Source: Chlamydiota bacterium
GTDB taxonomy: Bacteria; Auribacterota; JACPWU01
Length of the DNA stretch: 32,000 bases
Assembly: GCA_016196885.1 (NCBI GenBank)
Contig: JACPWU010000039.1
Span: 49,847-81,846, forward strand
Direction of reading: 5' to 3'
The position numbers and the translations under genes were made by a program. Below are positions 25,101 to 28,100 of this stretch, in pieces; position 1 is the first letter of the stretch, and each line of letters opens with the position of its first letter. The notes below the pieces were generated by a model. That model ran no database searches, was not told the DNA's origin, and saw nothing but the letters and a program-made list of their open reading frames with translations.

Positions 25101-28100
25101 CCATGGTTGCTGCCATGGCCGCTTTAAAGAATTTGGAACGACGTTTGAGGGTTGGGGAAGGAATTGTTTTCGAGGGTGGACGAATTTGGACTTTGGAAAG
25201 AGGGAGCGGATTAACCATTCGAAATGAAGCGTCAACAGGGGTTCTTCCAAAACTCTTTTCAATCACTTTTAATGAAATTGCTCCTCGTGAACTTTCAGCG
25301 GTTGAATGGGTTCGCCGTGCAAATACTTTTATGGAAGAAGGAAAACTGTCTTCAGCAAAGTTGGTGTTGGACAGGGTCGTTATTCCTGAGGTCGAGAGAA
25401 AGAATGGACGTTATGGAGAGGGGAGTCTTACGCGATCGCTCAATGAATCAAAGAGAAGATTAAAACGACTTTATGAGGAAAGAATGGCTCATATAACAGA
25501 GTTCATTCAGAGCGGCAGTTTGGAAGAAGCCAGGGTTTTACTTCAGACTTTGTCCCCGGGGTTTTCGGAAGATGACGGGTACGTCCTTGTAAGGGATCAG
25601 TTAACTCGGGCTGAGGAGTTCACGCCAGAAATATTCGCAAGAAAGATAGCAGAATTAAAAAGAAATGGGATCCCCTTTAAAAAAGCCTTGCTGCAAAAAG
25701 GATTCGCTTCTCCTCAAGCCTTTTTAGAAGCAGCGGAAGGAGTCGGACTTCGTTTGGAGGCGGGGGAGTGCCTGATTTTTATTATTAGAAGGAGCTATGA
25801 AAAACATTTGGGGCGAATGCGAGAGGTGAGAAAAGATTTAGGTTTTACAAACCGTGAAATGAAGATTTTGTATGCCTTGATTTCCTTGGATTTAAGAACA
25901 GTAAACTTTCATATTGTATCCAGATTGCAGACCGAAGTAGAAGCACTTGAAGCAAGAGGAGGAAGCTATGTGCTTTTTCGAGCTGTGAAATCTTTGGGTT
26001 TTGAGAGTCTGGAAGCTTTTGTAAAAAAATTCAAAAAAGAGGAGTTGTTATGGAATTATTTGAGAGATTGGATGAGGAACGTTGCTCGTCAAAGAGGAGC
26101 AGATCCAACTGAACTTTCTGATTATTTGGGTGTCAGCGAGGCATTTTTTAGAAACACTGTTGAAAGTGACCAGGCCAGGCGTTTAGGGGCTTCTTTGCAG
26201 GCCTATGTTGCAAGGTATAAAAATTATAAATTAAGGCCTGCACTCCAAGAGGCCGGATTTGAAAATTCAGCGGCTTTTCTAAAAGCGGCTCAAGCTGATT
26301 CAAGCCTTTTAAACGTTGTGAGGGATTTTTTTATCAGCGTCTTGGAATCCAATGGAGGTAATGTTCCTTATTGCGCGGTTGTGATGGATTTGCCGAAACG
26401 GACTTATTTGGGCTGGCTGGCGCGATTAAAGATTGAACCAGAAAACTTAAGCTACCATGAAGGAAAGAGACTTCGCAATGTTCTTAGCCGAGCGAGGCAG
26501 AGGGAGATTTTTGATCAGGGAAAAGTGTTATCTGATTTCGTCCCAGATCAAATTCAATGCTTTCATTTGCCCAGGGCTCTTGCCGAGTTTCATTGGGCGG
26601 ATTTTAAAGAATTCGCGAAGCATCATGGAAAACGAGAGGATGTAAAAAGTGTTTTGCGGGATACCTTTGAGGATGTTTTAGGGTTGACGAATGGGAGGAG
26701 GGTTTTGGCGGCTCGGCTTCTTGGATTAAGTTATGAAACACTGACAAAATGGATGGAAGCGGTTGGAATGGAGGTTGAAGAAGCCGTAAGGCCCAAGGAA
26801 GAAACAGGGCTGGGTCACTCCGTTGCTGCAAAATTAAGACGCGCGTTAGAAAGGCTTCCGGAAGGAAGTCCAGAGCGATTGGATCTTGCATTACAGGATT
26901 CAGAACTTCATTTTGGAGGGGATATGACGAGGGACGGGGATCCACTCCGAGCCTTCATGACCAAGTATGGAAGGGACCCTGAGGTTAAGGCTATTTTGAC
27001 GCGATTGGTGGTTCATGCGATGGAGGCTCAAGGAGGATTTGAGCCTGCTGCGGCCGCTCGTTTAGGAATAACGACAAGGACTTTGAGTGAGTATTACGAG
27101 TTGCTTGATATTAATAAGAAATCGTTGTCATACGACGAATTATCACGTTTTAAAAGAAAATGCGAAGAACTTTATTCGGGGGGAATTCCTAACATCAAAG
27201 AGGTCGTATTGAGCTTAGGTTACACAAGTGTGAAAGGGTTTATGACCCATGAGCTTAATCGAGAAAATCGTGAGCTTATGGGGGAGATCAACAGAATATG
27301 TAAGGCTGCATTGGACGTTACAAAAAATTTCAGACGAGCCGCAGAAGTCTTGGGTGTAAGTGCTGCTTTTGTTTCAGAGCATGCTAGACAGGCAGAATTA
27401 GCGGCGTCCAGCATTGGATCAGCAGAGAAAATTTCTCAGGTGATTCACATGAGTGCCGAAGTGAAAGAAGGGTTGCCTCAACCGGGCGAGACTTGTTCAC
27501 TCCCTGGCAATGGCCAAGAAAGAAATATTTATGAAGTTTTGAATCATAAAAGTATCACCGTCACCATGACGGATGGAGAAGTGACCTTTAGCCAAAGCGA
27601 TGCATTAGCTGTTTTGGAAGAGGCTTTGGGGATTGAGCCCAATCAGAGAGAAAAATTTTATGAAGCTTTAGAAGAAACCATACGCAATCGTGAAAAATTA
27701 AAGGGACGAAAGAAGTTAAGCGGGACGTTCACCCTTTATTTAGGGGATGTTGAGACAAGCAGAACAGAGCTAGAAAAAGAAGCTTACCGGACATTATTTG
27801 GAAATCATAAAAAAGATCATCAACTTTATTGCAACATCCGAGCCCTCCTGAATATTCAAAATAAAACACACCGCCGAGCGCTTTTTCTGACGGGTTTTTC
27901 ACACGAAATGGTTCACGAGCTTTTACCGGAGAAAGATCAGAAAGGGGAAAAGTTAAAAAAACTAGAAAAAGCCCTTGTCAAAGAAGATGCTGAAATTTTA
28001 AAAACAAAGATTAAAAAGATTAGAGCTTTTGTAAATGAATTTGAAAAAATATGCCAGGGTGATTTGATCCATCAGTTAAAACAAAATCTCCCAGTTAAAA

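Follow-up and report, generated by a model that had tools for sequence, protein, structure and literature searches.

The window analysed here is a stretch of 32,000 nucleotides from a Chlamydiota bacterium (positions 49,847 to 81,846 of the forward strand of contig JACPWU010000039.1, assembly GCA_016196885.1). It carries a giant open reading frame (ORF) with an internal array of six tandem modules, each joining a helical N-terminal half to a helix-turn-helix (HTH) of the Fis/NtrC type. The frame containing position 25808 is open from 22157 up to the window end and its first ATG is at 22199. The encoded protein is on record in two partial entries, both labelled hypothetical and attributed to a Chlamydiae/Chlamydiota bacterium metagenome-assembled genome (MAG): MBI3266799.1 (3,267 aa) and MBI1883282.1 (3,307 aa). 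A hidden Markov model (HMM) built with the window sequence excluded delimits exactly six modules, M1 to M6, which together span aa 1144-1741 (nt 25628-27421), practically the interval first predicted. The ORF and its modules, with their scores against this model, are as follows.

22199-32000, plus strand: giant ORF, an open frame with 3,267 codons within the window and at least 3,307 aa in all, running past the window and the contig end.
25628-25909, plus strand: module 1, aa 1144-1237, 13.6 bits, HTH-like part 25808-25888; the most diverged module, with its helix pattern kept in the AlphaFold2 model of the block.
25901-26173, plus strand: module 2, aa 1235-1325, 47.3 bits, HTH part 26093-26167.
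26159-26452, plus strand: module 3, aa 1321-1418, 50.0 bits, HTH part 26351-26434 (GGNVPYCAVVMDLPKRTYLGWLARLKI).
26447-26785, plus strand: module 4, aa 1417-1529, 67.5 bits, HTH part 26687-26770.
26810-27130, plus strand: module 5, aa 1538-1644, 57.3 bits, HTH part 27029-27112.
27125-27421, plus strand: module 6, aa 1643-1741, 38.9 bits, HTH part 27320-27400.

The original prediction, made by reading the translated sequence, had listed six HTH-like strings and four strings of a second, 'GFxSxxAF' type; all ten are in place to the exact coordinate and in a single open frame, and the HTH starts lie 285, 258, 336, 342 and 291 nt apart. The second motif is real, although its count was too low, since it occurs in all six modules and not in four; M4 carries it as 'EFHWADFKEF' and M5 as 'ELHFGG...LRAFMTKY'. 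The further claim that the modules, of 90-115 aa each, are old and diverged is also borne out: no repeat is found at the DNA level across the array, and the six modules emerge at the level of protein profiles. Self-BLAST of the giant protein returned one weak internal match (E 3e-4), and because single-sequence repeat detection is too weak on this protein, profiles of orthologues were needed. The HMM used for the repeat test was trained on 27 modules taken from relatives only; it finds six domains at 13.6-67.5 bits, against a top score of 1.4 bits among 200 shuffles of the giant protein. The predicted periodicity is equally apparent when alignments of orthologues, one per module, are compared by hhalign. 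Within M2-M6 the probabilities are 95-98.7 % (E 4e-8 to 2e-16) except for the pair M3-M6 (86 %, E 5e-6), with values of 95-98 % for M2 against M3-M6, 98-98.7 % for M3 against M2, M4 and M5, and 86-96 % for M6 against M2-M5; M1 reaches 39-93 % against M2-M6. By these profile comparisons M2-M6 are paralogues, and M1 is more diverged.

The kinship of the HTH parts with the Fis/NtrC family, as first proposed, was recovered by the corresponding Pfam profile. HTH_8 matches aa 1001-1834 of the giant protein at 46.7 bits (E 2.5e-12; gathering score 22). When modules are scanned singly, M4 (21.5-21.8 bits) and M5 (20.3 bits, E 4.7e-4) fall just below the gathering score, M2 gives only a weak Xre-like match and M6 only weak HTH_1/HTH_17 matches; M1 and M3 alone have no Pfam match and were assigned via the family profile. 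Of the 33 family modules scanned in this way, eight match HTH_8 (E<0.01); every other family is matched by one module at most.

An alignment of these 33 module sequences (A2) shows a constant order of elements. A helix 'xxRLxxxh' is followed by 'LxxAhxxLG[FYW]', by 'hxxFhxxh' and by a long helix 'hxxhhxxhhxxxL', after which come 'G(G)Nxxx(A)AxxLG[IVL]s', then a helix of recognition type that ends in 'LgID', and lastly 'L.Y.E'. Each module thus has six helices, with an 'LG[FYW]xxxxxF' motif in the N-half and the Fis-type HTH in the C-half. In M2 of the window protein about 10 residues are missing at the end of the recognition helix, a stretch that is present in every orthologue of the block alignment. 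When M4 was modelled by AlphaFold2 with A2 as the alignment, six helices were obtained with a mean predicted local distance difference test (pLDDT) of 89.5 and a predicted template modelling score (pTM) of 0.81. The model forms the helix-turn-helix that had been anticipated and superposes on DNA-binding domains of the Fis/NtrC family (ZraR, 0.7 Å over 39 columns; NtrX, 0.9 Å over 45; NtrC4, 2.1 Å over 52; NtrC1, 2.5 Å over 46). A Foldseek search of the PDB with the same model returned a list made up almost entirely of Fis, NtrC4, NtrC1, ZraR and NtrX, including DNA-bound NtrC4 (4fth) and Fis-DNA complexes; the E-values are weak (0.3-5), a level to be expected when a domain has only some 45 residues. 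The block of aa 925-1750 (826 aa), modelled with six homologues, gave a pLDDT of 77.6 and a six-fold repeated helix pattern with a pTM of 0.34. In these models the modules are confidently folded while their mutual arrangement is left undefined by the block model, which we read as suggesting modules arranged like beads on a string; a shallow alignment is a possible alternative cause of the pTM of 0.34.

Profile searches of the PDB point the same way. A profile of the six 43-aa HTH units found the consensus HTH_8 peptide (7zbs) and the C-terminal HTH of ZraR as its best matches (E ~1.5e-4), and the whole-module profile matched NtrC1, NtrC4, ZraR, NtrC, Fis, a Fis-like protein, FleQ and TyrR at E 1e-3 to 0.8, in all cases over the C-half. 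By sequence and predicted fold, the three helices of the C-half are a Fis/NtrC-type (Pfam HTH_8, PF02954) tri-helical HTH. The top sequence match in the PDB, the 'CAP repeat' 8vd6, was rejected as a relative since it is a de novo designed repeat protein (PMC12339374).

The N-half is less readily placed. Its signature 'LxxAxxxLG[FYW]xxxxxF' looks like a second helix-turn-helix and recalls the AraC-type motif, and the module profile also matches the AraC-type protein YesN (3lsg) and a hybrid two-component protein in the PDB at E ~0.03. There is no N-half match to PF12833 (AraC/XylS HTH_18) at the gathering score of 33.6 bits, the signals being 19.8 bits in the window protein and 23.4 bits in one relative (P0012), and one of the 33 modules reaches E<0.01. 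Aligned to the C-half by hhalign, the N-half falls in register with a probability of only 14.7 %. The possible HTH nature of the N-half is therefore offered as a lead.

An exhaustive HMMER scan of 1.84 billion representative sequences returned 17 proteins at E ≤ 1e-3, of which about eight carry the module, the window protein itself being P0007 in this set. The block corresponding to aa ~875-1733 is kept end to end in P0008 (4,167 aa), P0009/P0025 (6,192/6,524 aa), P0012 (1,945 aa) and P0015 (2,429 aa), while P0010 (5,214 aa) has the block with the last four modules; identity to the window protein over the array block is 23-29 % in five other proteins. All six modules are present in four of the giant proteins, and in a MAFFT alignment the modules are positionally orthologous across the array-bearing relatives. 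HTH_8 scores 34.7 bits in P0012 and 32.3 bits in P0008. The module occurs in other numbers and orders in P0019 (3,656 aa) and P0020 (1,528 aa), neither of which was in the training set; the full-alignment HMM gives six domain matches in the former and four in the latter, several of them partial, so that each has about four modules. Nine further matches cover only the region after the array (query positions 917-1169). Relatives with a source name are Chlamydiota MAGs, the others being from metagenome contigs. Word-index searches with the array or with the 33-module alignment found no relatives, and pattern-based scans of GTDB species genomes and JGI metagenome contigs confirmed none. The array family is rare, and the six-module block, together with the conserved domain that precedes it, forms a cassette shared within a small protein family whose members are giant mosaics from uncultured Chlamydiota.

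The company kept by the module varies among these proteins. P0019, a complete ORF (L005, 5313-16283), combines it with an extended series of HTH_17/excisionase-like repeats and, at the C-terminus, with a D12 Dam-type methyltransferase (E 3e-42); P0020, also complete (L004, 1258-5844), combines it with sigma-70 region 2 (E 2.7e-9) and has, by eye, a region-4-like segment after a signal-like N-terminus. Relatives also carry the non-DNA enzyme domains PPDK_N, RelA_SpoT, ROK and LOG. A pair of motifs, [GS][AT]LKD[IMLF]GPxL with [FY]HExxExxW some 85-130 aa further on, recurs among the relatives. P0019 has three copies of the pair, P0010 two and P0008 one; in P0012 only [FY]HExxExxW is present, and the window protein has neither. 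These might be the processing sites and a protease-like domain of polyprotein-like giants.

The array sits between several other conserved parts of the window protein, for which the signal peptide and transmembrane (TM) helices were predicted from hydropathy (Kyte-Doolittle, 19-residue window) and the (-3,-1) rule.

22199-22273, plus strand: signal-peptide-like N-terminus (MPFFRKIISLFLCLSLSLNEAWTWA/QEA), with a basic n-region, a hydrophobic core and small residues at -3 and -1.
24971-25627, plus strand: pre-array block, a small beta-rich domain and a helical linker that travel with the array in P0008, P0009/P0025, P0012 and P0015.
27407-28105, plus strand: HEMVH domain of ~210 aa, aa 1737-1969, with HEMVH at aa 1902 (nt 27902-27916), immediately 3' of the array.
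28118-28174, plus strand: first predicted TM helix, aa 1974-1992, 3' of the array, with a mean Kyte-Doolittle value of 1.86.

The N-terminal pattern recurs in the divergent relatives P0001, P0002, P0004, P0008, P0010 and P0019. In the hydropathy scan the stretch from the N-terminus to the array is free of TM segments, and a further predicted TM cluster lies at aa 2462-2673. Because of the signal-peptide-like N-terminus, the lack of a TM segment before the array and the positive-inside rule, the array is predicted to lie on the exported side of the membrane. On this footing the original prediction of an internal HTH array in a protein with a secretion signal and TM helices is supported. In the window protein and in P0002, P0005, P0008, P0010, P0012 and P0019 the hydrophobic core of the N-terminus contains a cysteine with a polar residue after it ('FLCLS', 'FFCEN', 'LLCQN', 'FLCSE', 'FVCET'), and 'A[QE]' follows some 6-10 residues on; this pattern is not that of a lipobox and might serve as a sorting signal particular to the lineage.

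Downstream of the signal, the first ~600 aa (window 22301-24058, aa ~35-620) belong to a separate conserved family, with 24-43 % identity to P0001-P0006. Its members are shorter, signal-peptide-bearing proteins from Chlamydiae and Omnitrophica MAGs and have an invariant D..H ('EDIH') and 'GGFH' motifs. A Tiki/TraB/GumN-like assignment for this 620-aa domain was considered and is unsupported, neither Pfam nor PDB profile searches giving a match. Two of these relatives, P0002 and P0005, have Hint/intein-like ends ('C[VL]T.DT..P', 'TTANHPYL'), and P0005 has a precomputed match to PF14890. The pre-array block has no Pfam match, and AlphaFold2 confidence for it is low in the beta part and high in the helices. 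The HEMVH domain is 46-55 % identical to parts of P0011, P0013, P0014, P0016 and P0017, which are giant proteins without the array; no Pfam family matches it, and none supports the SprT-like assignment that was tried. Beyond the first TM helix there is another HExxH motif (HEVIH, aa 2118). The last residues within the window (31900-32000, 'AITMLGRLGATEAMDDLFSLIRRN') resemble HEAT/PBS-lyase-type repeats by eye, and P0011 has Pfam HEAT_2 matches.

What the array does has to be weighed from these features. Our favoured reading, to which we would give a probability of roughly 0.45, is that it is a flexible multivalent DNA tether acting outside the cytoplasm of the producer. The modules would fold independently and be joined by flexible links; each would be a weak, monomeric, low-specificity DNA-binding unit, and six of them in series would confer multivalent, length-dependent binding of double-stranded DNA, so that bound DNA would be held close to the membrane-embedded region and to the HExxH domain that adjoins the array. 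Because the N-terminus is signal-peptide-like and no TM segment precedes the array, the DNA would be encountered outside the producer's cytoplasm, being either extracellular or that of a host or prey cell reached once the N-terminal part had been delivered or released. DNA binding is a property of every characterised member of the Fis/NtrC HTH fold family. With a net charge of +9 and a pI of 9.0, the array is slightly basic, the protein as a whole being neutral, and across the 33 modules the frequency of K/R at the columns of Fis R89, K90, K93 and K94 is 0.38, 0.33, 0.42 and 0.24 respectively, against a background of 0.16. We also counted in favour of a DNA role that the module shares proteins with a D12 Dam-type methyltransferase and HTH_17-like repeats (P0019) and with sigma-70 region 2 (P0020).

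Several observations weigh against a DNA tether. The 11 residues after 'LG[IVL]' have net charges of +1, -1, +3, -1, -1 and 0 in M1-M6 of the window protein, whereas the equivalent stretch of Fis has net +6. The basic contact residues of Fis are for the most part replaced in the window protein; at the equivalents of R89, K90, K93 and K94, for instance, it has T, K, E, A in M4 and S, E, E, L in M5, and among the 33 modules the share of D/E is 0.30 in the column of K90 and 0.21 in that of K93. Exposed residues of the recognition helix vary between orthologues. Fis and NtrC domains bind DNA as dimers; the array modules look monomeric, with no dimerisation partner evident. The structural matches of the M4 model have the weak E-values given above, the PPDK_N, RelA_SpoT, ROK and LOG domains of relatives mean that the association with DNA-directed domains is not exclusive, and the predicted export would separate a DNA-binding fold from the DNA of its own cell.

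The main rival is a re-use of the fold in which the modules no longer bind nucleic acid. Within the exported portion of a giant protein of the envelope or surface, they would act as spacers or scaffold, or else mediate oligomerisation or contacts between proteins. We consider this rival less likely than the DNA tether. Predicted export speaks for it, as do the near-neutral or acidic recognition helices of the window protein, with acidic residues common at contact positions, the restriction of good conservation to hydrophobic-core positions, and the composition of the relatives as mosaics of unrelated enzymes. Giant ORFs of the Planctomycetes-Verrucomicrobia-Chlamydiae (PVC) bacteria are, moreover, generally discussed as adhesion or predation surface proteins (PMC10066038; bioRxiv 10.1101/2023.11.21.568195). 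Yet basic residues are still enriched family-wide at the Fis contact positions, two- to 2.6-fold, it is in the array that the protein is basic, the module co-occurs with Dam methyltransferase, sigma-70 region 2 and HTH_17-like repeats, and the pTM of the block gives no sign of a rigid scaffold.

It is improbable, in our judgement, that the protein is instead a membrane-tethered DNA binder of the cytoplasm, its N-terminal segment uncleaved or its bulk otherwise kept inside, which would bind its own chromosome as a regulator or nucleoid tether, possibly as the output of a chemosensory (che) cluster. HTH_8 domains are normally the cytoplasmic outputs of two-component signalling, as in NtrC-family regulators; the giant gene lies on the same strand as a complete che-like cluster and begins 115 nt after it, and the sigma-70 region 2 of P0020 makes sense only beside RNA polymerase. 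However, the K/R residues before the hydrophobic core and the small residues at -3 and -1 are kept in very divergent relatives, which argues for Sec export and cleavage, no che cluster adjoins the genes of P0012, P0019 and P0020, and the giant ORF has neither a receiver nor an AAA+ domain.

Distinctly doubtful is a further proposal drawn by analogy with MARTX toxins, in which the giants would be secreted multi-effector polyproteins and the six-module cassette a modular DNA reader delivered to host or prey, bringing linked activities onto foreign DNA; it would be the equivalent, built on the Fis fold, of the arrays of TAL effectors. The activities concerned would be the HExxH domain here and the Dam-type methyltransferase or sigma-like domain in relatives, and the 'xALKDxGPxL' motifs would be processing sites. 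MARTX toxins have a dedicated secretion system, an autoprocessing protease domain and effector domains that are released; the signal-peptide-like N-termini, the mosaic enzymes and the 'xALKDxGPxL ... [FY]HExxExxW' cassette of the relatives make the comparison suggestive only. Finally, that there is no real feature here, with amphipathic helices resembling HTHs by chance or the region being non-coding or mis-assembled, is very improbable: single modules do score just under the Pfam gathering score, and M1 and M3 have no Pfam match alone, but the summed HTH_8 E-value of 2.5e-12, the shuffles at no more than 1.4 bits, hhalign E-values down to 2e-16, the keeping of the block at 23-29 % identity in five other proteins, the confident AlphaFold2 models and a Logan assembly contig, independently assembled and 100 % identical to the window across 8,903 bp, together refute it.

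Compared with known systems, the C-half shares the tri-helical HTH of the Fis/NtrC C-terminal domain (HTH_8, PF02954), as seen in Fis of E. coli, ZraR (1ojl), NtrC1 (4l5e) and NtrC4 (3e7l/4fth) of Aquifex and NtrX (5m7p) of Brucella, together with its signature 'hxxALxxxxGNxxxAAxxLGIsxxTLxxKlxxhGI', and its sequence-profile and structure matches are almost exclusively to HTH_8. Unlike in those proteins, the HTH of the array is internal, six-fold, monomeric-looking and fused to a three-helix N-half, it lies in a predicted exported part, and its recognition helices are much less basic. Fis is a homodimeric protein of ~98 aa that begins with a beta-hairpin arm and has one HTH, at its C-terminus, whereas the modules are internal to a protein of >3,300 aa and have a helical N-half without a beta-hairpin. 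NtrC-type enhancer-binding proteins have a sigma-54 AAA+ domain, and usually a receiver too, upstream of the HTH, and no Sigma54_activat, AAA or Response_reg match was found anywhere in the giant ORF (Pfam, E up to 1). The giant protein can be counted neither with Fis nor with the NtrC-type enhancer-binding proteins. With AraC/XylS proteins (HTH_18; MarA, Rob) the module has in common a compact all-helical unit of six to seven helices in which two HTH-like elements are joined by a long helix, and its N-half motif, 'LG[FYW]xSxxxFxxxFKK', is similar to the signature of AraC. The order of elements is not that of AraC/XylS, since the Fis-like HTH stands behind the AraC-like signature, and all matches are below threshold, so that this is a resemblance and not membership.

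Small helical DNA-binding units placed in series on one polypeptide are also found in transcription activator-like (TAL) effectors, in multi-Myb and multi-homeodomain proteins and in sigma-70, with none of which was homology detected. TAL effectors are secreted and act on the DNA of another cell. Their repeats are solenoid units of 33-35 aa, whereas the array unit is a globule of 90-115 aa with no hypervariable specificity residues evident, and in contrast to tandem DNA-reading arrays the relative orientation of the modules is not fixed in the block model. In alpha-solenoids (TPR, HEAT, TALE), helical repeats of 30-45 aa are stacked in one continuous superhelix; the array was rejected as a member of this class on the size and six-helix globular form of the module (pTM 0.81), the block pTM and a Foldseek template modelling score of ~0.1 between block and solenoids. 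As for the giant-protein context, the giant genes of Omnitrophota, uncultured groundwater bacteria of the PVC group, are very long, mosaic and poorly conserved and have N-terminal signals and TM helices (PMC10066038; 10.1101/2023.11.21.568195). The array family is like them in length, mosaicism, poor conservation, signal sequences and TM helices, and differs in being labelled Chlamydiota and in domain content; term searches of the same two papers found no mention of HTH arrays or of Chlamydiota.

In literature searches on tandem HTH arrays, giant Chlamydiota proteins and HTH_8 no earlier description of such an array was found. The Fis/NtrC-type HTH is known as the single, C-terminal, dimeric DNA-binding end of cytoplasmic regulators. 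We classify the array as new in that a known DNA-binding fold appears in a bipartite module, in six-fold tandem arrangement and in the unexpected context of an exported giant protein. If it binds DNA, it would represent a new architecture for multivalent DNA recognition and give one of the few clues to function for the giant ORFs of PVC bacteria, which otherwise lack annotation. It would also mean that the array-bearing proteins act on DNA beyond the cytoplasm of the producing cell. Should it bind none, the array would clearly exemplify an HTH fold that has been turned into a structural repeat.

The giant gene is also present on contig JACOUD010000028.1 (34,130 bp) of assembly GCA_016178005.1, where it is called at 3,307 aa and again overruns the contig end, so that its 3' end is missing on both MAG contigs; the upstream neighbour gene (20903-22084) is identical on that contig and occurs on the Logan contig as well. 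Directly 5' of the giant ORF, at 11845-22084 and on the same strand, lies the complete chemosensory-type cluster already mentioned, itself notable for a MAG labelled Chlamydiota. It comprises a methyl-accepting chemotaxis protein with dCache/HAMP, a CheA-CheW-REC hybrid, REC-REC, CheB, CheW, CheR-TPR and REC-HisKA-HATPase, the last of which ends 115 nt before the giant gene. Inspection of the loci of P0012, P0019 and P0020 found no adjoining che-like cluster, and a conserved operon context of cluster and giant gene was rejected. On the minus strand, a GTG-initiated ORF of 113 codons (26604-26945) lies wholly within modules 4-5 and is most likely a spurious ORF in a long coding region.

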